Shown here: piece by piece, positions 236 to 15,912 of the stretch
How positions within the stretch are numbered: the first letter of the stretch is position 1
How the letters are laid out: each line of letters begins with the position of its first letter
Assembly (NCBI GenBank): GCA_041744215.1
Contig: JBGTLG010000001.1
Location: 1 to 17,663 of the forward strand
Origin: Fimbriimonadales bacterium
GTDB lineage: Bacteria; Armatimonadota; Fimbriimonadia; Fimbriimonadales; ATM1
Length of the DNA stretch: 17,663 nt
Direction of reading: 5' to 3'
Position numbers and translations under genes: made by a program
Notes under the pieces: generated by a model
What the model saw: only the letters and a program-made list of their open reading frames with translations
Told to the model about the DNA's origin: nothing
Databases searched by the model: none

Positions 236-406
236 ATGAATTGGCCGATCCCAAAGGAGAAGCACATCCGGCGGTTTCAGGACTTGTACGTGCGCCGTTT
301 TAATGCGACGCTTACGCCGCAAGAAGCGTTCGATGCGCTTACTGCCCTAACTCACATTTATTATGCCAAACACATTGCGTTACGCCATCTACGCCCGCAA
401 GAGTAG
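236..406 (+). CDS. Small hypothetical protein (56 aa) overlapping the recombinase start
   Basis: Translated by hand (below the ORF-track cutoff): ATG 236 to TAG 406, MNWPIPKEKHIRRFQDLYVRRFNATLTPQEAFDALTALTHIYYAKHIALRHLRPQE. Its 'IxxFxxLYxxxFxxxLTxxEA' pattern resembles small helical proteins I recall next to this type of LSR (unverified). Confidence 0.55.
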   Translation: MNWPIPKEKHIRRFQDLYVRRFNATLTPQEAFDALTALTHIYYAKHIALRHLRPQE

Positions 407-2006
407 CGAGGAAGATGAACGGCAAGCCGAGAGTCTTCCCGGCCAGGTCAATGCCCTGAAAGGCTTTGCTGCCGAGCGGGGCATTGAGATCATCGAGGTG
501 CTGGAAGAGGCCCGCTCCGCCAAGGAACCAAGCACCCGCCCAGTCTTTGCGAGCCTTATCGAAAAGCTCAAAGCGGGCCAGGTTGACGGGATACTCTGCT
601 GGAGTATCGACAGGCTCTCGCGAAATCCGGTCGATTCCGGCCTCATCAGTTGGCTGTTACAGCAAGAAATCATTATGTCGATCCGGACGATGACCCGCGA
701 GTACGTGCCCGAAGACAACGCCGTCATCATGGCGGTAGAAACGAGCGTCGCCAATCAATACATCCGTGACCTCAGCCGCAACGTCAAGCGGGGCATGTCG
801 CGCAAGGCCGAACAGGGTTGGTGGCCCGGCCTTGCGCCGCCGGGGTATCGCAATGACAAGGAAACCAGAACCATCGCCATTGACAAGCCGCGTTTCGAGA
901 TGCTACGACGGGCGTGGGAAATGTTGCTCTGCGGAAACTACTCAGCCAGTTATGTTCTCCAAGAACTGAACCGATGGGGTTTTACCGTCGAGGGCAGGCA
1001 CGAAAGAACGAAGCCGCTTTGTCGGTCTGCCTTTTACAGGCTTCTGTCCAATCCGTTTTACACCGGTGAGTTCATGTACAAAAGCGAAATTCGCAAAGGC
1101 AATCACCAGCCGATGGTAAGCCGCTACGAGTTCGATCTTGTTCAGCAGCTGCTCGGGCGGCCGACCCGGCTGCGGTCCGTCAAATCCTGCTTTGCCTACT
1201 CGGGCCTTATTCGGTGCGGCGCGTGCGGCTGCCTCATCACCGCCGAGCGCAAGACGAAGGTCTATCGGCGAACAGAGCGTATCCGCAGCTACATCTACTA
1301 CCACTGCACCGGTGCGAAGGGTTGCAGGCGAGAAGGTGTGACAGAGAGCTACCTTGACCAACAAATCGGCGCACTACTCCAATCGTGTAGCCTTCAGGCA
1401 GAGGTTGCAGAGATCATCCGGGAAGTGATCGACGATTGCCTCACAGCGGAGATCCGATTAGGACAGACATTGGAACCGAACCGGCAAGGAAATCTCCGGC
1501 AACAGCATGTGCGTTTAGAGGCGCTGTTGGAGATGCGCCTGGCAGGTGAGCTATCGGCAGATGAATACGTCGCTGAGAAGAACCGGCAGCTTACTGCTAT
1601 TCGCAATCTCGAAGGGTCGCTGCGCCGGTGCAGAGAACTTTCGGATCGGCTGAAAGAAGAGTTTCGCCAGTCCGTTTTGGCCGTGACCGACATATCGGCG
1701 CGTTTCGCAATAGCGCCGCCGGAAGAAAAGCGAATGACGGCGAATGCGCTAGCACACGCCTACTTTCTCACTCTGGGATCGTTTCAGTACCGGTTGCATC
1801 CGATTATTGAGCTGTTCTGCACTTTCGAACTCGCGAAAAAGTCCAGACAACAGGTAGAGAGCGAGCTGGCTGTGCCCGACTGTCGCTTTCGGTGGGCCGT
1901 TCGGAACGTAATACGCACTCTGATGACAGGTCACGACAACTGTTTCGAGGAGTCAACGAAATTTGCAACCGACGACAAGTTGCCAAAGACTGGGATCAAC
2001 CGATGA
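363..2006 (+). CDS. Large serine recombinase / integrase (resolvase catalytic domain, recombinase domain, Zn ribbon, coiled coil)
   Basis: YARKS with catalytic Ser14, DRLSRN motif, APPGY...LLSNPFYTG recombinase domain, H-x-P-x-V-S motif (HQPMVS), CGACG...YYHC...C zinc ribbon, coiled-coil C-terminal region; 547 aa. Confidence 0.95.
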   Translation: MPNTLRYAIYARKSSEEDERQAESLPGQVNALKGFAAERGIEIIEVLEEARSAKEPSTRPVFASLIEKLKAGQVDGILCWSIDRLSRNPVDSGLISWLLQQEIIMSIRTMTREYVPEDNAVIMAVETSVANQYIRDLSRNVKRGMSRKAEQGWWPGLAPPGYRNDKETRTIAIDKPRFEMLRRAWEMLLCGNYSASYVLQELNRWGFTVEGRHERTKPLCRSAFYRLLSNPFYTGEFMYKSEIRKGNHQPMVSRYEFDLVQQLLGRPTRLRSVKSCFAYSGLIRCGACGCLITAERKTKVYRRTERIRSYIYYHCTGAKGCRREGVTESYLDQQIGALLQSCSLQAEVAEIIREVIDDCLTAEIRLGQTLEPNRQGNLRQQHVRLEALLEMRLAGELSADEYVAEKNRQLTAIRNLEGSLRRCRELSDRLKEEFRQSVLAVTDISARFAIAPPEEKRMTANALAHAYFLTLGSFQYRLHPIIELFCTFELAKKSRQQVESELAVPDCRFRWAVRNVIRTLMTGHDNCFEESTKFATDDKLPKTGINR

Positions 2007-2062
2007 AGGATCCGGGAGCAATTGAGAAGTTCAAGAAGGACTACTTTCGCCCATACCGGCAC
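1891..2062 (+). repeat. Direct repeat copy 1: LSR 3' end plus downstream sequence (putative att-containing junction J1)
   Basis: Manual alignment with 3337-3507 gives about 21 differences over ~172 nt (~88%). Starts GGTGGGCCGTTCGGAACGTAATACGCACTCTG and contains the palindrome CGTTC-G-GAACG. Confidence 0.95.
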
Positions 2063-2071
2063 CATGGTTAA
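2003..2071 (+). CDS. Possible 22-aa peptide coupled to the LSR stop by an ATGA overlap
   Basis: MKDPGAIEKFKKDYFRPYRHHG*. The equivalent ORF in repeat copy 2 is cut short by AAG>TAA. Confidence 0.2.
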   Translation: MKDPGAIEKFKKDYFRPYRHHG

Positions 2072-2138
2072 ATCTGCGCCCATTCGGGCTGGATTCTCGT
2101 CCTTTCGGTGTAGGAGTGCCCCAGACCAGGGAGGAGGC

Positions 2139-2168
2139 TTGACGGACCCGGTGCTTGTGGGATAGAAT
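2139..2168 (+). promoter_or_regulatory. Putative sigma70 promoter P1
   Basis: TTGACG (2139-2144), 18-nt spacer, TAGAAT (2163-2168), upstream of ORF 2246. Confidence 0.5.
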
Positions 2169-2195
2169 CTGTAGCCTTCTCGGGGCCGTTGGGCG

Positions 2196-2224
2196 TTGAC
2201 AATGTATGCTCCGCCGGCTAGCTT
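2196..2224 (+). promoter_or_regulatory. Putative sigma70 promoter P2
   Basis: Consensus TTGACA (2196-2201), 17-nt spacer, TAGCTT (2219-2224). RBS AGAGGTG precedes GTG 2246. Confidence 0.5.
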
Positions 2225-2245
2225 GGTCCTAAGAGGTGACACCAA

Positions 2246-2482
2246 GTGACCACGAAATTCATCAAGAACCTGAATAAATTTGTTGAGAGAGCAACCAAGA
2301 CAAAGATCGAAGTCATTGATAGAGAAACTATCGAGGAAGCTCGTCGGCGCGTCGAAAGAGAGTATGGAAAACCCATGGCTATCTCTACTCGCCGAAATCT
2401 AATAGGTCGAGGCAACACCAATTCGTCCAAGCTTGTTCAACGCTCAGAGCTAGAACGGGATCTGGATAGGTGCTTGAGATAG
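2246..2482 (+). CDS. Small basic hypothetical protein (78 aa)
   Basis: GTG start with RBS AAGAGGTGA, upstream promoter motifs and a downstream hairpin; charged, helical-looking sequence. Confidence 0.75.
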   Translation: MTTKFIKNLNKFVERATKTKIEVIDRETIEEARRRVEREYGKPMAISTRRNLIGRGNTNSSKLVQRSELERDLDRCLR

Positions 2483-2504
2483 GAAGTTCACGACCATCGC
2501 CTTA

Positions 2505-2532
2505 AGGCACCACTATCAGTGGTGCCTATTTT
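2505..2532 (+). terminator. Stem-loop / intrinsic terminator-like element between two genes
   Basis: AGGCACCACT-ATC-AGTGGTGCCT (perfect 10-bp stem) followed by ATTTT. Confidence 0.65.
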
Positions 2533-2539
2533 CTAAGCC

Positions 2540-3157
2540 ATGGATGACAAGCTACCTAATGATAAGGGCGGTGTTCCCCAGACACTAAAGGAACTCTTCC
2601 AGTTTTACCACGACGTAGTGAAGAGACTTTACAGCGTCGTTCAAGCGGAAAACTCACTGCCGGTTGAAATACTCTTCGAGCTTCACGCTGCCTTTGACCA
2701 CGTAACGAGAATATACACCTTCCATGAGCGCGAGGCCGATGCGGTAGCTAAGGCCTATTCGCACCTAAAGCGTTCCTGTCTCGATGTTTATAAGATTTAT
2801 CTCAGAGACACATTGGATATGTTCGAAGAGCTGCGCCGAATCGAAACACATTACATCGACAACGGGGAGTTCGATTTCAAACTTCGGCAGTTAGTCGCCG
2901 ATATTCGACGTAAGGCTCGTCACGCCCGCAGCGTGGAGGGAGATAAGCGCGAGGATATCGATGGTAAGATTCAGGCATTCGACCTCTGGCAAGAGGTCGC
3001 AGACGACTGCCAAAGGCTTAGAGAAAGTTTTTACTACTGCCCACACGTGGCGTGGGCAAAGAAGAAAGGTTTTTGGAACGCCGTTAAGTACATTGTAGTC
3101 GGAATAATTGCTAGCCTGATTGCGGCGGCTATCTGGCAATGGTGCGCCAGCCTCTAA
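2540..3157 (+). CDS. Hypothetical helical protein with C-terminal transmembrane anchor (205 aa)
   Basis: Clean ORF with the pattern E-x2-AAFDH-x2-R...KAYSHLKRSCLD and a hydrophobic tail YIVVGIIASLIAAAIW after KKK. Confidence 0.85.
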   Translation: MDDKLPNDKGGVPQTLKELFQFYHDVVKRLYSVVQAENSLPVEILFELHAAFDHVTRIYTFHEREADAVAKAYSHLKRSCLDVYKIYLRDTLDMFEELRRIETHYIDNGEFDFKLRQLVADIRRKARHARSVEGDKREDIDGKIQAFDLWQEVADDCQRLRESFYYCPHVAWAKKKGFWNAVKYIVVGIIASLIAAAIWQWCASL

Positions 3158-3336
3158 AGGAGCCCACTGCCCAAGGTGAGCGGAGGCTCAAATCCGGCAG
3201 TGGAAACCGGCAACTGTTTCTCGCAACGCATTATAGTTTGCAAGCCTCTCAATCTTAAGAGAAGGTTTAACGCACAGTTAGATCAAACTGAGTTTCCCTC
3301 GTTAGTGAATTGGGACGGGGGTAGTGTGTCCCGAAT

Positions 3337-3507
3337 GGCGGGCCGTTCGGAACGTCATACGCACTCTGATGACAGGTTACGACAACTGTTTGAAGGAGTC
3401 AACGAAATTTGCAGCCGACGACGAGTTGCCAAAGACTGTACTGAACCGATGAAGTATCGGGGAGCAATTGAGCAGTTCAAGTAAGATTACTTCGCCTAGA
3501 CTGGCAC
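3337..3507 (+). repeat. Direct repeat copy 2 (orphan LSR C-terminal tail; junction J2)
   Basis: From 3336 it reads WRAVRNVIRTLMTGYDNCLKESTKFAADDELPKTVLNR*, against the LSR tail RWAVRNVIRTLMTGHDNCFEESTKFATDDKLPKTGINR*. The frame is closed upstream by TGA at 3306-3308. Confidence 0.95.
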
Positions 3508-3586
3508 ACGAGCGAAGCTGTGGTCTGCTCCCCAAATCTGACGACGGAAAGGAGCGAATCGTTGTTGACGAGCAGGTGGCTCCCCT

Positions 3587-3712
3587 TGGCGGGCCCGGCG
3601 TGAACGCATTCGCACTCTGCTATCAGATAAGGACATTGAACAATGGAGTTGCGCGGACTGCTCGTTTCTTGACAGCACTGAATTAGGCGCTGACGATGGG
3701 AATGCGGCATGA
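3587..3712 (+). repeat. Diverged third LSR-tail / att-like junction J3
   Basis: TGGCGGGCC-N15-CGCACTCTG with the same spacing as J1/J2. Translates WRARRERIRTLLSD..., stays open for 41 codons and ends in TGA overlapping the ATG of ORF 3709. Confidence 0.7.
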
Positions 3713-4059
3713 AGAAAGACTCGGGACTAAGTGAGTGTTTCCAGCTCATCTCCACTATGGGCAAGCACGCGATGTGGGAGAAAAAGGCCAATGGCGAAGC
3801 AATGCATCAAGCACCGCTCGGCTACAAGAATGCTCGCCAAGACGGCCGATCGGTCATCGTTTCAGACCCGGCTACCTTCCATCTAGTGGAAAGAGCTCGT
3901 TTGCTGCGGGGTCAGGGCTGCACTTTGAAGGAGATATGTCGGCTAATGAAGAAGATGGGACTTCGATCAAGAAGAGGCAAGGTCATCACCGCCTCTGGGA
4001 TGGACAGGATTCTCAAGCGGCCTCGTCCTTTTGTTCAGACAACATCCAATACCTGCTGA
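3709..4059 (+). CDS. Stand-alone recombinase DNA-binding-domain protein with no catalytic domain (116 aa); possibly an LSR remnant
   Basis: KHAMWEKKANGEAMHQAPLGYKN...IVSDP...GCTLKEICRLMKKMGLRSRRGKVITASGMDRILKRP aligns by eye with LSR KRGMSRKAEQGWWPGLAPPGYRN...IAIDK...SAFYRLLSNP. Confidence 0.8.
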   Translation: MKKDSGLSECFQLISTMGKHAMWEKKANGEAMHQAPLGYKNARQDGRSVIVSDPATFHLVERARLLRGQGCTLKEICRLMKKMGLRSRRGKVITASGMDRILKRPRPFVQTTSNTC

Positions 4060-4990
4060 CAAGTTAGCTGCTCTGCTTCGAGCACGAAACGAGCGGACTC
4101 GAAGTTCGAACGACAGTGGGCGCTTAATTGGGGTAACGTCACCCCAACCCGAGCGAGGGCGAGTGGCGTTGATTGAGCGAAAGCCCGCTGACGATGAAGT
4201 GACGAAGTACGTTGCGACTGCAGCCAGGACAGCGGCAGCAGTCCTGTCGATACTTGCTTCTACGAGTGCGGTTGCGACAATTATTCTCTTTCTTTTTCAG
4301 CAGCCGTTGATTGCAGGCGCCTGCTTGCTCGCTGCGGTTGTTTTCACTGCTTGGCGCCTCATCCACATTTATAGAAGGAGGAAGAACGCGGCTGTGCAAC
4401 GTGTGTTCGCTGTAAGCACCGCTTGCAAATACCTGGCTGAACGAGCAACTTGGCTACTAACATCAACCCCCGAGGAAGGCAGGGCCGCGCTGACATATCT
4501 GCTCTACGCATTTCAGGCAATTCACGATTGCGATCCAAGAAGCCCGGACTACGGTTGGCAGGTAGCACTATGGGCTCCCAATGGCCCCAAATGTCTCCGA
4601 ATCATTGCTTCGGTCAACGTAGGAAGGACTACGGAGAACCGGTATCTCATGGGAGATGGCTCGGCACCGGGTACCATTGACGGTCTAGTATGGAAGGCCT
4701 GGATCGAGAAGCAAGATCTTCACTCAACGGATGCGCAGAGCGATGATCGCGTCGATACGAAGGAGCATAAGAAACACCAGAATCCCGAGCGTCGGTCGTC
4801 AATCGGCTCGATTTTCTGCAAGCTGGTGTGTCTCGATGAGCGCTCGGTCGGCGTCATTTCCATCAACAACCGACAAACAGGACTTTTCTTCGAGGATGAA
4901 GCAGACGCCAGAGCCGCAATCGCTGGGCTTGTTGCAATATGCATGAAGCTGACCGATAATGTAACAAGCTCAAGCGAGGTTAGTACATGA
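4031..4990 (+). CDS. Two-TM membrane protein with C-terminal GAF-like domain (true start may be downstream)
   Basis: Two hydrophobic segments (AAVLSILASTSAVATIILFLF; LIAGACLLAAVVFTAW), then GAF-like motifs GLVWKAW...SIGSIFCKLV...VGVISINNRQTGLF. Confidence 0.75.
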   Translation: MFRQHPIPADKLAALLRARNERTRSSNDSGRLIGVTSPQPERGRVALIERKPADDEVTKYVATAARTAAAVLSILASTSAVATIILFLFQQPLIAGACLLAAVVFTAWRLIHIYRRRKNAAVQRVFAVSTACKYLAERATWLLTSTPEEGRAALTYLLYAFQAIHDCDPRSPDYGWQVALWAPNGPKCLRIIASVNVGRTTENRYLMGDGSAPGTIDGLVWKAWIEKQDLHSTDAQSDDRVDTKEHKKHQNPERRSSIGSIFCKLVCLDERSVGVISINNRQTGLFFEDEADARAAIAGLVAICMKLTDNVTSSSEVST

Positions 4991-5205
4991 ACAGAGCATC
5001 AATGGAATCAACAGACAAAGATTTCTACGCCTATACACAAGGCGAGATCTCTCCAGACGAGCTGTACCACCGGTGGAAGGAAAAGCATCAGGTCGGCTTG
5101 TTCCGCTACTTCTGCCTCGAGACGATCGCTGACTTCAGGGCGATTTGGGGCGCAATCCTCGGCATATTCACTTCTCGAAGCAATCAATCCTCACGGCACC
5201 CGTAA
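4987..5205 (+). CDS. Small hypothetical protein (72 aa)
   Basis: ATGA overlap with the upstream gene, RBS GAGGT, and a hairpin over the stop codon. Confidence 0.7.
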   Translation: MNRASMESTDKDFYAYTQGEISPDELYHRWKEKHQVGLFRYFCLETIADFRAIWGAILGIFTSRSNQSSRHP

Positions 5206-5220
5206 CACGGGTGCCGTTTC
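5193..5220 (+). terminator. Stem-loop / terminator-like element
   Basis: ACGGCACCCGT-AAC-ACGGGTGCCGT (perfect 11-bp stem) followed by TTC; the U-tract is weak. Confidence 0.6.
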
Positions 5221-5445
5221 TCGTCAACAAGTACTTTCATGGTCTGAACCTACGATTGGGCGCGGTAGATCACACGAGTAGTGTTAAGTGCCCTCTGATG
5301 ATTAGTTGGCTCTATGGTTGAGAGAAATTCTCCTTTGGTGGGCCTGGTCAATGACCCGCTTGTAGGTTCCTGATTCGGATCATTCCAGGCAACGCGGGAG
5401 CCTCTCGTTTAGGAACCAGCGTAGGAACCATGGTGGCACGCGAAC

Positions 5446-8010
5446 CTAGGGTTGACCCTGCACTTGAACGGCGAGTCGCGCTCGCACGTCGGCGTAGATA
5501 TCAATTCCAGAGCCGACCCCAACTTCAAAACTGACTGCGATTGCATATGGAATGGTCTCATCAAGCTCACCGGCTTGAGCCAGGCAATCGACTGCAATTT
5601 CGGCTGTCGCTCCATTCGCAACCAGAACATTGCTTGAGCCATCGAAGCGGGCATGAAACACGGTGCCTTTGCCTCTAGAATGATCGTCCGGCTGGTTCGT
5701 GTTACTTCCATCCATGCCTGCAATATGGGGCAGCCGTGCAACAAGCTTTGCCATTCGATAGAGTTGATGACTCGGGTTGACTGGCGTGAACCAGGCGATT
5801 GTCACGGTCATCGAGCGATAGCCGATGTTTCCTCCCAACGTCTGGGGCACGGGAATCCTGAACAGGTGGCCTTGATCTGGTCCGATGAAGCCATGACCGA
5901 GCATGATTGCATGCTGATCAGTACAACCAGGCTCGAAGTCGCGAGGGATGCATCCAAACGTCAGGAACCGAGCAATGTCGCGCTTTAGAGCTGCTGATGA
6001 CTGGCCATTCTGGAAGAGTGTCTCTAGTCGGCCATATGTGGCTGGATTCACCCTGCTGTGATGCACAAGCAGTGCCTTGGCATAGAGCGGCCAAAACTGG
6101 GGCTCAGGATCGCCGAGCGCGTCCGAATCCAGCACTGCCTCGATCAGCTGGTGGGCGGTTCGCGTGGCCAGAGCTGCCGCTACGCTCGTGCCATAGATAT
6201 TAGATCGCTGATCTAGTCGGCCCTGTTGATCGGGTGCGGCTGCCGAGATGCCTGCAAAGCGACCCGGCGACAGTACCGGCTCAAGTCGAAGCGGCTGTGC
6301 CGCTCGGGACCGCAAAAGCGTTCTGCCTCCACCAAGTAAAAGTTCAGGTTTGATAGAACTTCGAAATCCTAGTCCAAGGCCGGAGATTACTGTTGGCAGT
6401 TCCGCCGAAACATACGGGTCAACGAGGTGCGCATGCAGACCACCTTCCGCTACGCTGTCACTGTGAGAAGAGCCTACTGTGAGGGCGTTCACAGACTCTG
6501 AAGGCGACAAGATGGCCCGGTCGCTAGCCATCGAACTTAAGGCCACGACGCACGCGATTTCTCGGTCGCTTTCGGTCGCACCTTGGAGATCGGTTATTGC
6601 GCCGTAAGCAGGTAATTCAAAGCTTCCCGTCACATTGCCTGCACTGACCACGAACAACACGCCATAACGCCATGCGAGGTAGTCAATCAACCTTGCCCAT
6701 GGACTCATGCGCCTCGAAAATGGCCTGCTACTGTCTCCAAGTGAGAGATTGATGATCTTGACCGTGGGGGCACTGGCCGGAGCATTACCCTCTCCCTCAA
6801 ACATCCGGCGAACAGCGCTATACATGTAGTCGACAAGGAGAATCTCCGGTGGAAAGTGCTCGTGAGATTGAGCATCTTCGCAGCACATGACTGGCCGCAC
6901 GTAGAGGCGCGACGATATAGGGGGAGCTCCGGCCAAGAGATCTCCATGGATGATCAGAGACGCCATCTCTGTGCCATGGCGACGAGACGCGACAGTTGCA
7001 TACCGCTGTTCGAGGCCGTCTGGATCGTCAATCGCCATCCGACCCTGAAGCAGCACGTGATTCTGGATGGGGACGCCATCAATAAGAGCCACAAGTGGAT
7101 CGCCAAGTTCACCAACCGCTTCCGGGATCGGTGAATCGTCAAGATCTTCTTCGTCGGGTGTCGTGATCGAGGCAGCGCTTTGAGGACGCACAAACATGAC
7201 ACCATCGGCGTTCAAGAGTGCAATGTCGCCTAGGTCAATCAAGGCTTGAACGGCCGCTCTCGGAAGACGTGCGAGTATTGCCGCGTATCGAATCTCGCCT
7301 ATTAAGGAAGTAAACAGCACCTGTCCGCCAGATGCCTGTACCGACTCGGTGACACTTTGAAATCTTCGCACATTTACGTCACCGCTGTCGCTGTACCAAA
7401 GCTCGACTTCAGCCTGGACCACTTGATCGCCAACCGATCCCAAGAGCTCGGCGAAGAAGGCCTGATCTTGAGGATTGATCCGGTCCCGCGCACCCCATGG
7501 CCGAACATCAATCAAGTGCTCAAAAAGGTCTCGCCACTTGGCAAATCCGCGGGGAAACGCTTCATTCCTCTTGAACCGATTCCAAAGGGTGACAAGCTCT
7601 CGGAGCGAAGTCTCATTGGGCATCACTAAGTAGAAGTGGGCCGGAACTGGTTTCTCGGGCCGCTCTCTGCCATCGTGGCCGATGACCACAAATCCTGTAG
7701 CGTCGGTTTCCTCTCCCTCTTCCTCGAAGAGGAACTCCAAGCCGATCTGTCGGGCTTTTTCGGCAAAAGTGGGAATTCCGCTTCCGGCTACCTCAAACAC
7801 GATTGCCCGTTCCGGGGCCAGGCTCGTTGGGTCGTCCCTCAACTCGCTTACGCGGCCTTCCGCGATGAGTTGCTCGATAAGTTCAAAGCTGCCGCCGAAT
7901 CGTTCAGTCTGTTGCTGGCGACCTGGCCTGTGGAGTCTTGCGCCACCGCCGCGCCTCCTAGCTCTGTCTTGGACGCTTGGGTTTGGGATCGGAAGATATG
8001 GTTGTTGCAC
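5446..8010 (-). CDS. ietS: S8 family (subtilisin-like) serine peptidase, IetS-like
   Basis: Catalytic motifs VALIDG (Asp), HGTEMAS (His), NLSLG, SAGN (oxyanion Asn), KPEL and GTSVAAA (Ser); long N-terminal extension; directly downstream of an AAA+ ATPase. Confidence 0.9.
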   Translation of the reverse strand: MQQPYLPIPNPSVQDRARRRGGGARLHRPGRQQQTERFGGSFELIEQLIAEGRVSELRDDPTSLAPERAIVFEVAGSGIPTFAEKARQIGLEFLFEEEGEETDATGFVVIGHDGRERPEKPVPAHFYLVMPNETSLRELVTLWNRFKRNEAFPRGFAKWRDLFEHLIDVRPWGARDRINPQDQAFFAELLGSVGDQVVQAEVELWYSDSGDVNVRRFQSVTESVQASGGQVLFTSLIGEIRYAAILARLPRAAVQALIDLGDIALLNADGVMFVRPQSAASITTPDEEDLDDSPIPEAVGELGDPLVALIDGVPIQNHVLLQGRMAIDDPDGLEQRYATVASRRHGTEMASLIIHGDLLAGAPPISSRLYVRPVMCCEDAQSHEHFPPEILLVDYMYSAVRRMFEGEGNAPASAPTVKIINLSLGDSSRPFSRRMSPWARLIDYLAWRYGVLFVVSAGNVTGSFELPAYGAITDLQGATESDREIACVVALSSMASDRAILSPSESVNALTVGSSHSDSVAEGGLHAHLVDPYVSAELPTVISGLGLGFRSSIKPELLLGGGRTLLRSRAAQPLRLEPVLSPGRFAGISAAAPDQQGRLDQRSNIYGTSVAAALATRTAHQLIEAVLDSDALGDPEPQFWPLYAKALLVHHSRVNPATYGRLETLFQNGQSSAALKRDIARFLTFGCIPRDFEPGCTDQHAIMLGHGFIGPDQGHLFRIPVPQTLGGNIGYRSMTVTIAWFTPVNPSHQLYRMAKLVARLPHIAGMDGSNTNQPDDHSRGKGTVFHARFDGSSNVLVANGATAEIAVDCLAQAGELDETIPYAIAVSFEVGVGSGIDIYADVRARLAVQVQGQP

Positions 8011-9019
8011 GTTGTCCTTGTTTCCTTGCCTTGTCAGTTCCTGCGCGCATCATCCGCCAGTCGGCAAGAACAGACGCAAGGGCGCCTTCTGGTGTGGTTT
8101 CGCCGAGAGACAAAACAAGCTTCCTTCGGAGGTTCAGGCAGAACTGCTCAAGTTCTGAGAATGTCGTAGAACCGAGGGACTTCGCTAGAGCCGTTGAGGT
8201 CATTTTGAGCAAGGGTTGCAGGTCTTGGAGATAGATCTTCAAATAGCTCGTCACCTGGATCTGCGTGGGTGGTGGGAGTTCCAATCTCAGCTCGAATCTC
8301 CGCCATGCTGCTCGGTCAAGCAGCTCCTCATGATTAGTGGCTGCGATCACTGTTGTATAGCTGGGCAAGTCGTCGATCTGTAGAAGCAAACTGGTTACGA
8401 CCCGCTTGATTTCTCCGGTCTCGTGGATGTCGCCACGCTCCTTCCCCAAGGCGTCGAACTCGTCGAAAAACAGGACGCAAGGGGTCGTTCGCGCATAGTC
8501 GAAGACACGGCGCAATCGGCTAGCTGTCTCCCCCAGAAAGCTACCGATGATAGCGTCATACCGAACTACGAAGAACGGAACGCTGAGGGACTCTGCGATC
8601 GCCTCGGCAAGCGATGTCTTCCCATTGCCTGGTGGACCCACAAGCAGTATTCGATGTCTCGGCTCCAATGAGTGCGCCCGAAGCAGGTCGGCACGAAGTT
8701 GCTCTTCGATGATTTGGCTCACAAGCCGCTGGCAATCAGTTCCCAGGATTAAATCCGAAAGTCGCCGGCGGGGAATGAACTCCATGACCAAGTCTCGCGC
8801 CTTGCCGTTTGGGTCTGACTGAGCCGGCCGAGGCTGCGCTGACCCGTTGCCGTTGAGATCCGGCTGTGCGTTGAGGGCTTTTGAAAGTCGGTCTGCCAAC
8901 ACGTTGTGTTGCTTGGCCCGTTCTTCGGCGATGAGTGTTTCAGCGACTGTTCGCACTGCTTGCTTGTCACCTGCTGAACTGGCCTTCACCAGGGACACGA
9001 GAAGATCACTTCGCGACAT
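7958..9019 (-). CDS. ietA: AAA+ ATPase, IetA-like
   Basis: Walker A GPPGNGKT, Walker B LFFDEFD, GEIKRVV, second region of homology AATNHEELLDRAAWRRFE; overlaps the S8 gene by 53 nt. Confidence 0.92.
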   Translation of the reverse strand: MSRSDLLVSLVKASSAGDKQAVRTVAETLIAEERAKQHNVLADRLSKALNAQPDLNGNGSAQPRPAQSDPNGKARDLVMEFIPRRRLSDLILGTDCQRLVSQIIEEQLRADLLRAHSLEPRHRILLVGPPGNGKTSLAEAIAESLSVPFFVVRYDAIIGSFLGETASRLRRVFDYARTTPCVLFFDEFDALGKERGDIHETGEIKRVVTSLLLQIDDLPSYTTVIAATNHEELLDRAAWRRFELRLELPPPTQIQVTSYLKIYLQDLQPLLKMTSTALAKSLGSTTFSELEQFCLNLRRKLVLSLGETTPEGALASVLADWRMMRAGTDKARKQGQRATTISSDPKPKRPRQS

Positions 9020-9439: not shown

Positions 9440-10012
9440 CTAACTGCGGATCCAATCGCCTAGGCCGTTGTGATTCGCCGCATCGATCGTTTGGCACCGA
9501 ATGTCTCCGTCAGTGCTAGTCATCATGATTCCAGAATAGTTTGGAAGGCCGGGCCAATGGGGATGCGAGTGGTTTTTTACAAATGACTTCGTCTCGTAGA
9601 GGAAGCTGCCGTTGACAAAGGCAATTGTTGCGATGCCCTTCTCGGCAGCGTAATCAAGTGCACCAGACTGAAAGCCGCACGTGGCGAAAATCATGCCCTT
9701 ATGCGCTTTGATCGCGTCCAATTTTGCCCATAGGGTTAACAACGTATCTCGCTTGACTGGCCCAGAGTAGCGCTTACACTCTACGGCGATTCGGATACGT
9801 GCGCCTTGGAGGAGTTGGAACTCAGCGACCGCATCCAGCTCGTAGTCGCCGCCTGTGCCGCTAAGATGGCTCAAGTGCTCAATCGTGAAGCTCTCGAGTT
9901 TGTCTCCGCCCGCCTTCAACCACTTCACCACCTGAAGCTCGTACTGCGTCGGTGTGATATCGGCAGGTACTAGAGGATTCCACGGTGAATCCGGGTTTCG
10001 CTTTGGATTCAT
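9440..10012 (-). CDS. Mrr-like PD-(D/E)xK restriction endonuclease domain protein (190 aa)
   Basis: TPTQYE...YELDAVA...IAVECKRY...KGMIFATCGFQSGALDYA matches the Mrr catalytic-domain pattern. Confidence 0.85.
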   Translation of the reverse strand: MNPKRNPDSPWNPLVPADITPTQYELQVVKWLKAGGDKLESFTIEHLSHLSGTGGDYELDAVAEFQLLQGARIRIAVECKRYSGPVKRDTLLTLWAKLDAIKAHKGMIFATCGFQSGALDYAAEKGIATIAFVNGSFLYETKSFVKNHSHPHWPGLPNYSGIMMTSTDGDIRCQTIDAANHNGLGDWIRS

Positions 10013-10362: not shown

Positions 10363-10625
10363 TAGTAGTCTTCAGGTAGTAGAACGGTGGTTGCAGCGCG
10401 ATCGGCTTCGGTGATGATCCAGAACTTGGTCTGGTTGCTGTCTGTATAGACCGAGAGCAACCGCCAGCCGTGCTCCAGCGAGCGCTGGTTCTCCTGCCAA
10501 TCTTCTTCATCAACCTCGCCCCAATGGCCGGTGACGTGCAATGCCAAGGCCATCAAGACGTCCGCTTCCTGCAGTTGGTTGAGGGCGTTTGCCGTGATGA
10601 CGACGCGCCCGAGATCGAAGAGCAC
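10362..10625 (-). CDS. Small plasmid/ICE-associated hypothetical protein (87 aa, ...LLPEDY C-terminus)
   Basis: GTG at 10625 preceded by AAGGAGG. Motifs FDLGRVVIT, HxxGHWGEV, RLLSVY, WIITEADR and TTVLLPEDY match a family I recall from mobile elements. Confidence 0.85.
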   Translation of the reverse strand: MLFDLGRVVITANALNQLQEADVLMALALHVTGHWGEVDEEDWQENQRSLEHGWRLLSVYTDSNQTKFWIITEADRAATTVLLPEDY

Positions 10626-10653
10626 CGTCGCCTCCTTGGTCGAGTGACTGGTC

Positions 10654-11043
10654 TCAGTGAAACGCTTCCGACTCGAAACACAGCTCGACGGTCTGTTCAT
10701 GGACCCGGTAGAGCGCCTCAATGTCGAGCCATAAGCTCTCGCGATTGTCGTCAGGCTGCAGCCCGACGCGATCGTTCTCGAAGAACAAACGCCCCGTGCC
10801 AAGCGTTATCCGTTCGCCGACTCTCGGCGTTGATGGATAGACGCCATGATAGAGATCGCCGATGTGACGGGAAGTCCGGGCGACCAGGACCTGCGCGACG
10901 AGCGAGCCGCATCTGCCGGCCGGTCCGGTTTCAAGCTGGCACGTCAGTGACGTGTCCTCGTCCATCAGATAGACCGAGCCGTAGCGATCGGTGACCGGCT
11001 CGCACGGATCCCAAGTCAAGATGCCGCTGCCGAGTTTGAGCAT
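10654..11043 (-). CDS. Hypothetical protein (129 aa), phage/mobile-element-like
   Basis: ATG at 11043 preceded by AAAGGAGG; GC-rich third codon positions; protein-like motifs SRHIGDL, VGLQPDD and WLDIEALYR. Confidence 0.8.
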   Translation of the reverse strand: MLKLGSGILTWDPCEPVTDRYGSVYLMDEDTSLTCQLETGPAGRCGSLVAQVLVARTSRHIGDLYHGVYPSTPRVGERITLGTGRLFFENDRVGLQPDDNRESLWLDIEALYRVHEQTVELCFESEAFH

Positions 11044-11292
11044 CGTCAAACCTCCTTTGCCGTGAGATATCAAGGTTCTGCCCAGCTGCAGCGTTAGAAA
11101 ACGCCGCAGCCGGGTAGCTCACAGCGTCGTCAAACTCATCCCGATTGTCAAATTTGGATGCGTTCTTCGGATCAAGCAGCGGATTCCGTTCTCTTCGGTC
11201 AACTGCTTTTGCGCTGTTCTTCCCGCTTTGGGTCAATGGATGAACGATCTCCGCTTCACTTCGGGGATTGAGCACATCTCAAGGAGAACATC

Positions 11293-12306
11293 ATGGATTC
11301 AGTTTGCACTCTCAGCGACCTCCAGCAATCGATCGCCCAAGACGATAACGGCAAATGGGACAAGGTCGTCCCGACGAAGAACCTCTGCCTCAGAGAGGGC
11401 CGCCTCGACTTTCATGGCGAGAGTCCGGCCAGCGAGACCTCGCTCAGCCTCACCCCGTGGTCGAGAAGCCAACTCTGCAACCTGCTCGGCATTCCCAGTG
11501 CCTACTTCGGCAACTGCCCGCCCGAGCTGCAGGACAGGCAATTCAACTACTGGCTAGGCCGGCTAGTCGAACATCGAAGCGAAGATTCCAACGGCGAACT
11601 GCCGCACGAATCGAAAGCGAGCAAGCTCTTGCTTCGGGGCAAGGGCGAGACGCTAAGAGCGGCGCTCAGCACCCGCTACAACCGCTTCGACAACAAAGAC
11701 ATTGTTGAGCATCTGACGCCGTATCTTTCGGAAGGTTGGGAAACGACCTGGTACGCTTTCGACCAAGACATTCTCCATCTGCGCCTGACCCGTCCAGCCA
11801 CCATGCGAGAGATTCGCACAGGGGATTTCGTTGTCGGCGGTATGCATGTGATCAATAGCGAGGTTGGCCGCTCAGCGATCACGATCCGCGCAGTTCTGTA
11901 TCGGCTGGTTTGCACCAACGGCCTCATCTGTCCGGTCGGTGAAAGGGAACTGCTTCGGAAACGGCATGTCTTCACCGTCGGCCACCAGTTCCGCACCGAA
12001 CTCTCCGAAGCCGTCGAAACGGCGATCGCGCAAGCCGAATCCGGCCTCAATGTGATGCAGGAATCGACGAGGTTCGATATCGGCAACGTCGCCGAAGAAA
12101 TCGACGAACTCGAGGCGCGCTACCCGCTGCCCGGCTCCTACCTCAAGGAGATCAGGGAGATGGCCGATATCAGCCCAAGTTCGTGGACTTCGCTCTACGA
12201 CCTGACCAACCTTCTGACCCTTGCTGCCCAGCGGCTGCCGCCGACCCAAAGGGTTGAAACGGAAGCTGTGGCCGGCGACTTCATGCTCTCACGGCTCGGG
12301 CGTTAG
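11293..12306 (+). CDS. DUF932-family protein
   Basis: LRAALSTRYNRFDN and INSEVGRSAITIRAVLYRLVCTNGLI...RKRH motifs; RBS AAGGAG at 11281; downstream terminator. Confidence 0.88.
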   Translation: MDSVCTLSDLQQSIAQDDNGKWDKVVPTKNLCLREGRLDFHGESPASETSLSLTPWSRSQLCNLLGIPSAYFGNCPPELQDRQFNYWLGRLVEHRSEDSNGELPHESKASKLLLRGKGETLRAALSTRYNRFDNKDIVEHLTPYLSEGWETTWYAFDQDILHLRLTRPATMREIRTGDFVVGGMHVINSEVGRSAITIRAVLYRLVCTNGLICPVGERELLRKRHVFTVGHQFRTELSEAVETAIAQAESGLNVMQESTRFDIGNVAEEIDELEARYPLPGSYLKEIREMADISPSSWTSLYDLTNLLTLAAQRLPPTQRVETEAVAGDFMLSRLGR

Positions 12307-12316
12307 CCCAATACCC

Positions 12317-12342
12317 AAACCGGTCCCCAGGGACCGGTTTTT
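12317..12342 (+). terminator. Intrinsic terminator (possibly bidirectional)
   Basis: AAACCGGTCC-CCAG-GGACCGGTTTTT between convergent genes. Confidence 0.85.
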
Positions 12343-12410
12343 GCCGACTGCAAAGCCTTCTGAACAGATATTCGTCGCCGGCGACCGAATAGTCGACGAG
12401 TCAGCCCCGC

Positions 12411-13439
12411 TTACCGCTGGGGTGGTAGAACCTTGGACCACTTGTTTAGTGCCCGACCCCTCTGAGCCTTCGAGGGGTGAAACTTCCATAAATTTGGCTC
12501 ATCGTCAGAATGAAATCGCTCGATATACTCCCGAACCGGATCCTCTCCTACAACAAGTGCAGCAACTCCATCGGCGAGGTACTCAGCCTCAAATCGAAAC
12601 CCCCTCCCAATCAAAAAGAGTCCAAGTATTACAAGAACTGAAATGCCCGAATGCAGCTGCGACAGTCGCATCTTTCTCCCGTGATCGTCACGTTTAACAG
12701 CTATCTCCTCTTCGAACCCTCTCCGTGCCGCTATTGGGTCACTTACCTGCTCACGTAGGAGCATCTCCAATTCACTGCGCTGGGCATCAACGCCCAGTTC
12801 AAACTGACTGTTACCTATGAAGGGAAGCAGCAGTGCCGTTACCACTGCAAGTGGCAGCATCAGCCTGAGCATCCATACGGCTATCGCATGCGTCTGAATA
12901 ATCTTGGTGGCGTTCCCTGTTGTGCAGTGCGCAAGCTCATGAGCAAGCATCGCCTCTGCTACTGATCGATTCTCGCTCGTAAGACGAAGAAAGCCGAGGG
13001 GAATAATAATGTCACAGCCCTTCCTTGTCGGGATCGCTGCCGGGCTCATCCCAAGGTCTTCTCGATTTACAAGGAGATTGATGTCTCGAGTCTTGGGGAA
13101 CAACTCACGGAAGCGACTGACCAGATTGGAGAGCATCGGGGCTAATGATCCCTCGGTGAACGGTGAAAGTCTCTCACCGTTCCCTTTGAGTTGCCTGCGA
13201 GTATAGATCGAAGCAAATGTGATGATCCCGAGAAACACACAGAATGTCGTGGCGTACCCTATGCGGCCAAACACATCGAGTCCAGGGTCAAATACAGCCA
13301 GTCCATAGACGATGGCACCTACCAATTGCCAAAGGACGAAGACTCGAAAAACCCCCATTCTGAACGCAAGGCTTTTAGAACGCTTCGAAACATTCCTTCT
13401 AATGATGCGGATGTTCTGCTGGTTGCTGTCAACCGCCAT
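12411..13439 (-). CDS. M48-family (HtpX/Ste24-like) membrane zinc metalloprotease
   Basis: AMLAHELAH (HExxH), EAEYLADG third ligand, FHPS...R C-terminal motif and several TM segments. Confidence 0.85.
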   Translation of the reverse strand: MAVDSNQQNIRIIRRNVSKRSKSLAFRMGVFRVFVLWQLVGAIVYGLAVFDPGLDVFGRIGYATTFCVFLGIITFASIYTRRQLKGNGERLSPFTEGSLAPMLSNLVSRFRELFPKTRDINLLVNREDLGMSPAAIPTRKGCDIIIPLGFLRLTSENRSVAEAMLAHELAHCTTGNATKIIQTHAIAVWMLRLMLPLAVVTALLLPFIGNSQFELGVDAQRSELEMLLREQVSDPIAARRGFEEEIAVKRDDHGRKMRLSQLHSGISVLVILGLFLIGRGFRFEAEYLADGVAALVVGEDPVREYIERFHSDDEPNLWKFHPSKAQRGRALNKWSKVLPPQR

Positions 13440-13887
13440 TAGCCACGGACACCCTTTCAGCGAGCCGCTCCACCAAGCAAGTCAATCGATCCAAGTGATC
13501 ACTGATCAGCCGTTCGGACTTGTCGTCCTCAATCATCGACTTGAGACTCTGCCGTAGCAGATCCTCTGCCTTTGCACGCGAATTCGCTTCGACATTGGAT
13601 TTCTTGACTTTTATCAACTCGGAGGCTGTCTGAACAATGGCGACCACGAGAGGAACGAAAGCGATCATCATCGTGCCCGCGTGCTCAGGCACACACTCCA
13701 GACCCGTTCGGCGTTTATGTTGCGTCTGGGAACCCGCGCAAATCCTTCGAATCCAGAACTCTCCACCCTCTTCCCATGCCAACAGTTCAGCCGGGTCGAG
13801 AGTGTCGACTACTGGCGTCAGGGCATCCTTCATTTCGATTACTGCCAAATCGTCTATTGGCAAACACGATCCATCGTTGATCTTCAT
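13429..13887 (-). CDS. Hypothetical protein (152 aa) with one hydrophobic helix, coupled to the M48 gene
   Basis: Overlaps the M48 start by 11 nt; hydrophobic stretch MMIAFVPLVVAIV followed by a charged helical tail. Confidence 0.7.
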   Translation of the reverse strand: MKINDGSCLPIDDLAVIEMKDALTPVVDTLDPAELLAWEEGGEFWIRRICAGSQTQHKRRTGLECVPEHAGTMMIAFVPLVVAIVQTASELIKVKKSNVEANSRAKAEDLLRQSLKSMIEDDKSERLISDHLDRLTCLVERLAERVSVANGG

Positions 13888-14007: not shown

Positions 14008-15912
14008 TCACTCCTTCGGAGTCACCCTCATCACCGTCGGTGGCTTTGGCTCAACAGGGACGAAATGCGCTGGTCCTGGCCACAAGGAAGCTGAGCGTTG
14101 AAGCTCTCGCAGCACTTTGCCCGAATCTGCTATCCACCCAGCGTCCATCGCATACGGATACCTCCGTTTGTCTCCCTGTGGGTACAGCACTGAATCGGCG
14201 GACCTGGTGAGCAGAGTGCTGAGATCAGCATCCCCCGTATTCCGATCATGGAAGGTGGGCTTCAAATTCGCTTCCATATTACTCATGAGCACGAGGAATC
14301 GCACCCACCGGTGCTGTTCGAAATCAAAACCCAGAAATGCCTTTCCGGCAAGTTCTCCGCGATCAAGCAACTCATCAACCATTTCCTTCGGCATGTCGAG
14401 ATTGAGTCCTCCCTCCTTGGGGCGAAGCGGCAAAAACACGATCCGTTCTCGATATCCGGGAAGTCGAGATTGCATGGTATCGCGAAAATTCTGGGCGGAA
14501 CTAAATATCGCCCCCAAGAAGCCCAACGTTGATCTGATCGGTTTGGACAATTCGGCGATGTGCGCGTCCGCACGGTGCATAAATGGTCGGATGACTTCGG
14601 ATGGCCCTTCCTCTTGCGAAACCTGTCTTGGTTGCACGTCTACCAACTGGATGCCAAATGTCGGCCGGGAAGGAATCCAGTTATCGAAGAAGTGGATCGG
14701 AAAGTTGCTTGAGATGCCTCCGTCGCTGAATAACGAAATCGACAGTTCTTCTCGAGGCCGCTTGATGGGGACAGAACTACCGTCCTTCGTATTGCCGCGA
14801 AAGGCAGGAAAGCTGTACAGTCTCACTGCGCTTATCAATAATGGAAAGCTCAAGCTCATGCGCGCGGCGACGACTACGGGCAGCTCTTCGGATGGCAGCG
14901 GATGCCAGCCGTCGGGTAGTGAACGCACTGGTGGTGTCCTATTAGCTGAGGCCATCGCTACCACCACCTCACGCGGAAACAGCCGATTCATGTCTTCTTC
15001 TGCGAAAACATACTCGTCGGTCTCGAGGGGCAATCGGTAGGGACGTTCCCGTGAGACGTTTGTTGTCATCATGGCAAGTTCGATGCCCTCTTCTTGCAGC
15101 CGGCTGAAGTTAAGAAGTTCACTCTCCTCCTCTCCGAATGCGACGTACTGGATCGCCCATGTGAGCCAATCGGTCAACACGCCGTCCTCGGACGCGTGCG
15201 CGCCTGGTTCGTGCCCGAAGCAGATTCCGAATTCAGTCTGATTTGGGAGAGTTCGACTAACTATTCTCAGTATCGCCCAGAGCCCGCCGATCGCACCACC
15301 CAAGAGTGCGAAGATAATGAAAGGAATGACGCCGGCAGGAGAGAAGAGTGAAAGATTCAGAGTTTCGCGCCACGAGGAGCCTGGTGGCGAGAGTGCGTAC
15401 GTCTGGAGCCAAGCGAACAGAATCCATAAGCCAATGCCAAGAATTGTTCCCACCAACGTCGGGCCGGTCGCCCAGCGCCACAGCGTGCCGTAGACGCGCG
15501 CCATGCGAAGTAGCAAGGGCCCCTGAGCGGCTGCCTTTCGAATCACTTCCAGAAGCGCGGCAGTACGCCTGTCCGGCTTAAATCTCTTGAGAATTTCGCC
15601 CGGTTCCGACAACGCCTTACCAACCTCGACCAACCTGGAGAAGCACGGGTGGAGCCCGTTCATAGGCCTGGCGGTCGGATTCCGCTGACGCCCGTATTCG
15701 GCAGCTGCCGTGAGTGCAGCAGCAATTGCGCCAGCGGACGTTCCTCCGATCGATGCGAACCTATATTTCTTGGAGAGCTCTGCGATAGCAGTTGGGTAGA
15801 CGATTCCGCTCGCAATGCCGCCCTTCATTATCAGATCGCACTGCGGGAGTTGGCTTGCGTCGATCGCTTGCCCCTCGGCTACTTGGCCAGGATTCGATTC
15901 GCGTTCACCCAC
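14008..15912 (-). CDS. Patatin-like phospholipase with an internal two-TM insertion (634 aa)
   Basis: KGGIASG oxyanion loop, GTSAG nucleophile elbow, ARMSLSFP and SDGGISSNFP (DGG); two hydrophobic segments lie between the catalytic motifs. Confidence 0.92.
   Translation of the reverse strand: MGERESNPGQVAEGQAIDASQLPQCDLIMKGGIASGIVYPTAIAELSKKYRFASIGGTSAGAIAAALTAAAEYGRQRNPTARPMNGLHPCFSRLVEVGKALSEPGEILKRFKPDRRTAALLEVIRKAAAQGPLLLRMARVYGTLWRWATGPTLVGTILGIGLWILFAWLQTYALSPPGSSWRETLNLSLFSPAGVIPFIIFALLGGAIGGLWAILRIVSRTLPNQTEFGICFGHEPGAHASEDGVLTDWLTWAIQYVAFGEEESELLNFSRLQEEGIELAMMTTNVSRERPYRLPLETDEYVFAEEDMNRLFPREVVVAMASANRTPPVRSLPDGWHPLPSEELPVVVAARMSLSFPLLISAVRLYSFPAFRGNTKDGSSVPIKRPREELSISLFSDGGISSNFPIHFFDNWIPSRPTFGIQLVDVQPRQVSQEEGPSEVIRPFMHRADAHIAELSKPIRSTLGFLGAIFSSAQNFRDTMQSRLPGYRERIVFLPLRPKEGGLNLDMPKEMVDELLDRGELAGKAFLGFDFEQHRWVRFLVLMSNMEANLKPTFHDRNTGDADLSTLLTRSADSVLYPQGDKRRYPYAMDAGWIADSGKVLRELQRSASLWPGPAHFVPVEPKPPTVMRVTPKE

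Follow-up and report, generated by a model that had tools for sequence, protein, structure and literature searches.

Serine integrases are the main tools for large-DNA insertion, and their sites are usually thought to lie outside the integrase gene. SPbeta SprA/YokA and the A118 integrase have their attP outside the gene. In the staphylococcal cassette chromosome (SCC), units moved by a large serine recombinase are stacked head-to-tail at one site, and some of these units lack the recombinase yet carry its sites. Integrons make use of the tyrosine recombinase IntI and folded single-stranded attC sites, and most of their cassettes lack a promoter and are expressed from Pc. Here, we describe the gene of a large serine recombinase (LSR), named LSR_A, together with the small units that follow it in a stretch of DNA of 17,663 bp. 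This stretch, referred to as the window, is the complete contig C1 of a Fimbriimonadales-type genome of 2.68 Mb in 42 contigs.

Tandem islands at the transfer-messenger RNA (tmRNA) gene ssrA of Dehalococcoides, some of which lack an integrase, are described in the available excerpts of McMurdie et al. 2011 (PMC3146451). The recombinase gene dsiB overlaps attP/attL in these islands, and is perhaps complete only on the circle or beside an island that supplies the 3' fragment (PMC3146451). The same excerpts name SCC and pseudo-SCC composite islands and the accretion of cis-mobilizable elements (CIMEs). Among tyrosine integrases, those of myxophage Mx8 (IntP) and of the fusellovirus SSV extend across attP, according to excerpts of the Islander paper (PMC4383910), and a title in its reference list (Tojo et al. 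1996) states that integration alters the enzyme in its C-terminal region. In the same excerpts of this 2014 database paper, serine integrases are not known to target transfer RNA (tRNA) genes.

This work compares the LSR_A locus with homologous loci and with these systems. We confirm that part of the LSR_A gene recurs behind the gene at exact junctions, and we propose that the window probably records the accretion of integrase-less units by recombination inside the integrase gene.

Junctions and tail modules in the window

LSR_A is encoded at 363..2006 (+ strand, as for all features of the window unless indicated otherwise) and comprises 547 amino acids (aa). Its body extends to about 1893 and the last 38 codons form a tail (tail A). 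Judging by its domain composition, it is a large serine recombinase with the resolvase, recombinase, zinc ribbon order: the Pfam domains Resolvase (residues 8-152, E 2.5e-21), Recombinase (180-264, 3.5e-07) and Zn_ribbon_recom (279-337, 8.1e-06) all score above the curated cut-offs, and the phrog_95 integrase is matched with an E-value of 8.3e-65. The protein has 1166 homologues. An alignment of 48 homologues including LSR_A displays a catalytic motif in which R12, K13 and S14 are nearly invariant and S24, Q28, R84 and R87 invariant. Structure matches are distant and partial (SPbeta SprA/YokA, 9dxh, E 5.7e-07; Listeria A118 integrase, 4kis, 2.1e-05). Comparative evidence predicts that LSR_A performs site-specific recombination at short att sites.

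The motif YGGYGGGCC-N15-CGCACTCTG occurs without mismatch at 1890, 3336 and 3587. A first-pass annotation of the window had reported these three places with identical spacing and had placed the first inside the LSR gene, from codon 510 onward; both statements are correct, base 1890 being the first base of codon 510 of the 547-aa open reading frame (ORF). The chance expectation is 0.01 matches, and at least three matches were reached in 0/200 shuffles. The segment spacings of 1446, 251 and 1749 bp and the ORFs of 78, 205, 116, 319 and 72 aa were retrieved as annotated. At the first junction, J1 (core CGGTGGGCC, 1890..1898), the integrase body is joined to a tail module, which makes it an attP-type junction and a mosaic point. 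The second, J2 (core TGGCGGGCC, 3336..3344), is an orphan-tail junction. The third, J3, has the same core (TGGCGGGCC) followed by a class-2 orphan tail of 40 codons (tail C; core and tail together 3587..3709), of which the stop overlaps the ATG of the 116-aa ORF (p116). The DNA to the left of the three cores is mutually unrelated (50.5% in a forced global alignment), which bears out what had been noticed at first sight.

A fourth junction, J4, had been proposed at the 9-mer TGGTGGGCC (5336..5344) and is unsupported. At least one match to this 9-mer is present in 26/200 shuffles, which is chance level, and its degenerate form occurs 128 times across the 2.68-Mb genome. The right flank shows no tail homology with either the tail hidden Markov model (HMM) or the C-terminal HMM described below. 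J4 was also considered as a tRNA remnant and rejected, as this flank is not tRNA-like.

Two classes of tails are found. The class-1 module comprises the tail codons and about 55 nucleotides (nt) past the stop. Copy A lies at the end of LSR_A (1894..2062) and copy B is an orphan with 38 tail codons, a stop and about 55 nt (3340..3508); a third copy belongs to the second integrase of this genome, a 547-aa protein 56% identical to LSR_A (contig C12, reverse strand, 524-3452). Copy A is 87.6% identical to copy B and 92.4% identical to the C12 copy. When the comparison starts at the core (1891-2062 with 3337-3507), the identity is 87.8% over 172 columns, spanning the last 38 codons and about 55 nt after the stop, and the translation of copy B shares 76% aa identity with LSR_A residues 510-547. 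All class-1 copies terminate at the same base, and their flanking DNA is unrelated on either side. The DNA at J3 can be aligned for about 50 nt only; tail C is homologous as a protein (tail HMM, E 4.9e-4 genome-wide; C-terminal HMM positions 55-72, E 0.002). Orphan tail B is matched by the tail HMM with a genome-wide E of 4.8e-4. A profile scan of the contig and of related genomes had been suggested as a check on the junctions; a tail HMM built from 47 homologues marks exactly four significant places in the 2.68-Mb genome, namely tails A, B, C and C12.

The two integrases are mosaic exactly at the junction core. LSR_A and its C12 paralogue share 61.9% identity over the 169 nt that precede the core and 92.4% beyond it; the identity is 0.60-0.63 at 1840-1899 and 1.0 at 1900-1929, which puts the switch between 1890 and 1900. 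Given this jump, at least one of the two enzymes bears a tail that has not co-evolved with its body. Both enzymes carry native-type tails without tRNA read-through.

The left arms of the orphan tails contain no remnant of an integrase body. The left arm of J2 (3158..3335) is non-coding and without integrase homology, and that of J3 (3509..3586, 78 nt) has no significant homology to integrase bodies. A C-terminal HMM of 75 positions was built without proteins of this genome; the homology of the orphan proteins begins at position 54-55, and positions 1-53 have no match in any frame left of the orphans. DNA local alignment with seven integrase 3' bodies gave p 0.10-1.0 for the J2 arm and, for the J3 arm, a best p of 0.03 in seven uncorrected tests. 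Among 49 comparisons of the left arms of seven orphans (from the window and relatives) with the last 100 nt of seven integrase bodies, the minimum p against shuffles was 0.01, which is chance level. No conserved motif is common to the left arms of the units. Decayed full LSR genes left of J2 and J3, which the first-pass annotation had named as evidence that would speak against it, were thus found neither by HMM nor at the DNA level. Two weaker resemblances were discarded: that of the J3 left arm to the last 17 nt of the integrase body of the relative G525, noticed by eye, is insignificant on alignment (p 0.067), and a dyad between J2 and the tail arm (10/14) is too weak, being equalled at 43/2000 random places.

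Crossover inside the integrase gene in homologous loci

A set of 160 homologue loci was collected, 80 of them from species genomes and 80 from metagenomes, and the ORF is complete in 131. In 96/131 complete loci, the opposite strand carries a tRNA gene that overlaps the ORF 3' end or lies within 150 nt of the stop. The homologue ORFs enter the acceptor/CCA end of this tRNA at a conserved Trp codon, TGG being the antisense of CCA. Homologues that end in a conserved native tail instead are in the minority; in the LSR_A family this tail reads W-x-A-x-x-[DN]-x-I-R-T-L. With the native tails of eight intact integrases as queries, orphan copies were found on the integrase strand only. Matches of a tail HMM made for these loci outside the integrase numbered 21 upstream on the same strand, one downstream and zero on the opposite strand, counts of which only the strand and position bias is independent, the HMM having been seeded with its own first matches.

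Pairs of attL and attR with a common core of 6-9 nt can be read in 14 loci. One end of these elements consists of the integrase body followed by the tRNA, the other of a terminator-like host flank followed by the native tail. In one of the homologue loci (L081), the core at tRNA-Met is TGGTGGGCC, the same as the window core, and the reverse complement of the core corresponds to the ends of the tRNA-Met and tRNA-Ile of the window's own genome. The body-tRNA fusions and the orphan tails upstream on the same strand together place the crossover inside the integrase gene. J1, J2 and J3 lie exactly at this crossover of the family, which falls within the integrase's own 3' coding end, and the first-pass annotation is supported in this respect. 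In the LSR_A clade, integration would thus sever the last 25-40 codons, which would be left at the other end of the element.

Among the 160 loci, L175 alone (4814-4897) shows the geometry of the window, in which an orphan tail follows a native-tail integrase downstream. On another contig, an integrase with a native tail (L022) lies about 21 kb upstream of a tRNA-His-fused integrase (L047) on the same strand, and its tail is 96% identical to the orphan of a single element elsewhere (L049). These three loci indicate that an element inserted beside the integrase of another hands the newcomer's tail to the resident enzyme. Two orphan tails upstream of one tRNA-Trp-fused integrase were observed in a Saccharibacteria locus (L014, 491-556 and 3083-3154); each follows a different terminator-like flank, and the integrase-less unit measures 2.6 kb.

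Recurrence in Fimbriimonadales

The 228 genomes of the order were searched with p116, which gave matches in 54 genomes, mostly full integrases; this count includes the unpublished genome G011, on which no result rests. Seven loci were fetched for their small-ORF matches. A native-tail integrase followed downstream, on the same strand, by orphan-tail units without integrase recurs in 4/7 of these loci (two orphans each in G525 and G364, one each in G374 and G450a), three of the seven having been chosen for several matches, which favours arrays. In all four genomes, the homology of the orphans to the tail of their own integrase starts at the same 9-mer, and the units measure 1.6-5.3 kb. A fifth locus (G491) has repeated post-integrase modules. 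The tails within one array are 88-92% alike. Different units carry unrelated cargo, which is often of a defence-like kind (helicase-nuclease, Abi_C, caspase-helicase), and several of them close with a terminator-like hairpin that lies to the left of the next core at a distance of a few bases.

The backbone upstream of the integrase is common to these relatives and comprises HTH_3, Mrr_cat, a Phage_rep_O-like gene and a small ORF. The first 360 nt of the window are the end of this backbone. They hold the 3' part of a backbone gene, a 5'-open ORF cut by the contig end (2..235), which shares 55.6% aa identity with the ORF upstream of the integrase in G010, another genome of the phylum. This fragment has no Pfam match; the equivalent ORFs of G525 and G374 match Phage_rep_O. 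Positions 1-826 of the window are 77% identical to contig C12. The G525 island begins with a tRNA-Met, behind which lie a tyrosine integrase and an rve transposase (L200, 1360-2410).

Closer relatives of the array were searched for. Tail DNA is present in its own genome only among 61 relatives (0/60 others), a codon-degenerate tail pattern gave 0 matches in metagenome contigs, and an LSR profile retrieved distant relatives only from genome and metagenome contigs (31-51% identity). No close relative that could show gain or loss at the cores was thus found in these collections, the nearest integrase being 56% identical.

Contents of the units

The small gene for p116 (3709..4059) encodes a recombinase (RD) helix-turn-helix region alone. 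It matches phrog_95 at positions 229-312 (E 3.4e-07) and Pfam Recombinase below the cut-off (E 0.0047); no match was found in viral contigs. Five homologues of 103-118 aa share 56-82% identity, p116 can be aligned well with small ORFs of other Fimbriimonadales, and a small p116-like gene is located at most 730 nt after the integrase in 7/7 fetched Fimbriimonadales loci. The members of this family are about 105-143 aa long, with the RD helix-turn-helix alone, and directly follow the integrase tail, often with overlapping stop and start (window 3709-4059; L200 11044-11430; L202 5067-5447 and 8172-8552; L205 9343-9660 and L204 9456-9887, the latter two on the - strand). A third p116-like copy of G525 is interrupted by an insertion sequence (HTH_Tnp_1; L200, 19130-20247). 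By this conservation, p116 is an intact gene of the tail module in relatives rather than a pseudogene piece, and the mini recombinase domain that had been annotated as cargo has to be reassigned accordingly to a conserved small gene after the integrase tail. The p116-like proteins are candidates for a directionality or accessory factor. A 22-codon ORF overlapping the integrase stop (ATGA; 2003..2071) is possibly the 5' remnant of a p116-like gene, given its short resemblance to the N-termini of this family.

Unit 1, between J1 and J2, carries genes of 78 aa (2246..2482, followed by a terminator-like hairpin at 2505-2527) and 205 aa (2540..3157). The 78-aa protein has no Pfam or PADLOC match and is 70.5% identical (aa) to an ORF beside the G010 integrase; the 205-aa protein matches phrog_9168 (1.1e-08, function unknown) and is 75.5% identical to its G010 counterpart. 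The pair occurs in 2/401 genomes of the phylum and adjoins the integrase 3' end in both. It is convergent to the integrase in G010 (L096/L097, G010:C2, about 148-152 kb) and co-directional in the window; around this inversion, no inverted repeat and no second tail was found. A tail-like match in G010 (E 0.27) was dismissed, as it is not a tail on read-through. In its distribution, the pair is unlike a freely exchanged cassette.

The segment between J2 and J3 has the spacing first given to it, 251 bp, and consists of a tail module plus 78 nt only. The last unit carries, behind p116, the genes of a 319-aa protein of unknown function (p319; 4031..4990) and of a 72-aa protein (4987..5205), both without Pfam, PADLOC or PHROG match. 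A GAF domain had been assigned to p319, for which there is no Pfam match at E <= 0.01. This gene occurs in 1/228 genomes of the order, its own. The promoters annotated in the units are not distinguishable from background either, with three promoter-like sites in 1800-5500 against 2.3 +/- 1.6 in shuffles.

Origin of the array

The repeat is a real, site-specific feature of the window, and we favour, as the probable origin, site-specific accretion of integrase-less units at the integrase 3' end with the crossover inside its own gene. Enzymes of the LSR_A clade would cross over at conserved Trp/Arg-Ala codons, about 38 codons before the stop, where the core resembles the antisense of a tRNA acceptor/CCA end. 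Each recombination at the core would part the left arm, which is the integrase body, from the right arm, which codes for the tail. J2 and J3 would be orphaned tails, attL-type scars of earlier events and each the left end of a unit without integrase body, and J1 would be a body joined to a foreign tail module, by which the enzyme was re-tailed. The region from 1890 to about 5300 would then be the record of serial accretion at the 3' end of one integrase gene.

We infer the order of these events, and for the entry of the units we consider two routes. Integrase-less circles may have inserted at the integrase core, which is the capture model (route a), or full elements may have accreted, each of which later lost backbone and integrase (route b). 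The loss in route b would proceed via the enzyme's attP x (pseudo-)attB reaction within the chromosome, leaving a foreign arm joined to a tail. Every reaction that route b requires is known from serine integrases. The observed order, an intact integrase followed by orphans, is matched more directly by route a; we know of no serine integrase for which the site pairing of route a has been described.

Several observations weigh against accretion at the integrase 3' end, beside the self-seeded HMM behind the strand counts and the selection of the loci through p116 matches, some with several. The window is without a tRNA, tmRNA, Rfam family or other attB right half, which leaves the array without a defined far end. 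In the window and four relatives the orphans come downstream of the integrase, and in the tRNA-fused relatives upstream of it; simple integration at a tRNA is therefore insufficient as an explanation. A second boundary, at about 2062, is likewise fixed in all three class-1 modules and is not predicted by the model. The 78/205-aa pair adjoins the integrase of G010 without a second tail, and unit 1 may, on this comparison, belong to the integrase element itself and not be a cassette. Lastly, Logan contigs from three runs of one study, one of them probably the source, contained no joint between J sites and no circle, X2 and X3 covering the window thinly and with gaps. The sole joint in these run contigs (249 to 1894) and the variant letters at 1948-2002 come from the C12 paralogue, and the run contigs give no evidence either way on excision.

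A rather unlikely, stronger version is a capture platform, in which the internal core acts like attI and integrase-less circular cassettes are inserted beside the integrase, excised and reshuffled. Each cassette would consist of a replacement tail, often with a p116-like gene, and a left arm; it would re-tail the enzyme and push older tails downstream. This agrees with the order of native-tail integrase and same-strand downstream orphans in the window, G525, G364, G374 and G450a, and with small units (0.25-5.3 kb) whose cargo is unrelated and often defence-like and which often have a terminator-like hairpin left of the next core. Likewise, tails that are 88-92% alike within an array of unrelated cargo, strain-specific cargo such as p319 (1/228) and a mosaic that places near-identical tails on two 56%-identical integrases are what such a platform would leave behind. 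Neither the run contigs nor the relatives show a circle, an empty site or a reordered array, however, and the unit left arms lack a conserved motif. The 78/205-aa pair is integrase-linked in G010 as well, and the conserved tail with p116 resembles the portion of a full element next to its integrase more than it does a minimal cassette site. Capture also requires recombination of body/tail with arm/tail, two sites with the same right arm. The rules of serine integrases (attP x attB, attL x attR) leave J1 unpaired with J2 or J3, and to our knowledge the studied serine integrases do not perform such a pairing. In the first-pass annotation, att-type junctions at the integrase's own 3' end that bound integrase-less units were combined with integron-like capture and shuffling; the former stands, the latter is plausible but unproven.

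Debris of tandem integrase islands, in which non-specific deletions left 3' gene fragments by chance, was already disfavoured and is improbable. The region is a defence and mobile-element island, other integrase fragments exist (such as a 141-aa ORF on C12 that matches integrase residues 215-255), and the class-1 modules all have a putative truncated p116-like 5' end. Chance deletions would, nevertheless, have to account for two independent orphans of different tail classes that start at most 1-2 codons from the mapped family crossover, for further orphans in four other genomes that start at the same 9-mer, for left sides without detectable body remnant, and for p116 as a conserved intact gene instead of a fragment. 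The most improbable reading is that the integrase 3' end was duplicated or converted through homologous recombination, without a site-specific step: a 169-nt module at three places in one genome with 88-92% identity could seed exchange, but the left edge of all copies coincides with the crossover that was located in other genomes, tail C has diverged too far for such exchange (about 50 nt alignable) and the flanking DNA is unrelated on both sides.

Other features of the window and of contig C12

The array is followed by a complete Iet anti-phage system on the - strand (5446-9019), with the subtilase IetS (854 aa, PADLOC 1.7e-266) and the AAA ATPase IetA (353 aa, 1.9e-140). Further defence or island-type genes are located on the - strand at 9440-10012, 12411-13887 and 14008-15912, and encode an Mrr_cat nuclease, an M48 peptidase with a 152-aa partner and a 634-aa patatin-like phospholipase. 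The region 10364-12344, which holds a DUF932 gene (phrog_1362, 2.2e-33), has a second copy on contig C42 at 81% identity, and the run contigs show variant letters and loose ends there. The last 141 nt (17523-17663) form a dispersed repeat that breaks the assembly: contigs C36 and C14 each have the identical sequence at an end, and C8 has it internally with 98% identity.

On C12, the integrase is followed by a convergent gene resembling orotidine monophosphate decarboxylase, with a 34.5% identical paralogue on C40. This pyrF-like gene was considered as a chromosomal flank and is uninformative on the element end, given the second copy on C40. The 141-aa ORF of C12 is a recombinase-domain fragment.

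Comparison with known systems

With integrons, the locus has in common a recombinase gene with an adjoining primary site and a one-directional array of small recombinase-less units. It differs in having a serine recombinase as its enzyme, a site within the ORF of that enzyme, and units with terminator-like ends of their own. Tail-coding modules of the integrase, and not attC sites, form the boundaries, and the J2 dyad is within the random range. As a tentative proposal, the locus could be a serine-recombinase counterpart of the integron, with a primary site in the integrase 3' end. Captured integrase-less units, often with defence genes, would bring a replacement tail and usually a small recombinase-domain-only gene. 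The enzyme's C-terminus would be rewritten by the latest capture, and the older tails downstream would form a readable history, in a layout common to Fimbriimonadales. If the downstream units were truly captured, this would be a second route beside integrons, mechanistically unrelated to them, by which bacteria accumulate accessory and defence genes at a single recombinase gene, and orphan tails would be a simple sequence marker for such stacks in metagenomes. A site inside the gene makes the C-terminus of the enzyme dependent on the recombination state and on the latest insertion, which could act as a built-in switch of putative function.

SCC resembles the locus in its stacked units, some of them recombinase-less. 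The Ccr sites differ in lying in the 3' end of a host gene (orfX/rlmH) and not inside the recombinase gene, and no tail is swapped. SPbeta SprA/YokA and the A118 integrase share the resolvase, recombinase, zinc ribbon order.

The attachment site of Mx8 IntP and the SSV integrases lies inside the integrase ORF as well; these are tyrosine recombinases, and no orphan-tail arrays are described for them in the excerpts of PMC4383910. Against the statement in these excerpts on serine integrases and tRNA genes, 96/131 complete homologue loci adjoin a tRNA 3' end. The literature searched gave no account of tRNA-targeting serine integrases that have attP within the gene, or of such arrays, and the available part of PMC12884075 held nothing relevant to in-gene attP or arrays. 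A serine-integrase clade with attP in its own 3' coding end thus appears undescribed for tRNA targets, and is DsiB-like.

DsiB, by the features described in the excerpts of PMC3146451, is a serine recombinase of about 540 aa of which the gene, like that of LSR_A, extends over attP/attL and the stop is set by the DNA past the junction. The Dehalococcoides islands are tandem too, delimited there by repeats of the target 3' end, and those without an integration module are taken in the same excerpts as cis-mobilizable elements formed by accretion. The target differs, being a tmRNA with the crossover in the T-loop and a 20-bp repeat, in contrast to the window with its 169-nt tail repeat and no tRNA or tmRNA. 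The partners differ as well: DsiA is a small catalytic serine recombinase, whereas p116 has the RD helix-turn-helix alone. The position of the orphan tails further sets the window apart from these islands. As far as the excerpted description extends, the DsiB/ssrA islands of Dehalococcoides would be the closest published analogue of the locus and would follow the same principle.

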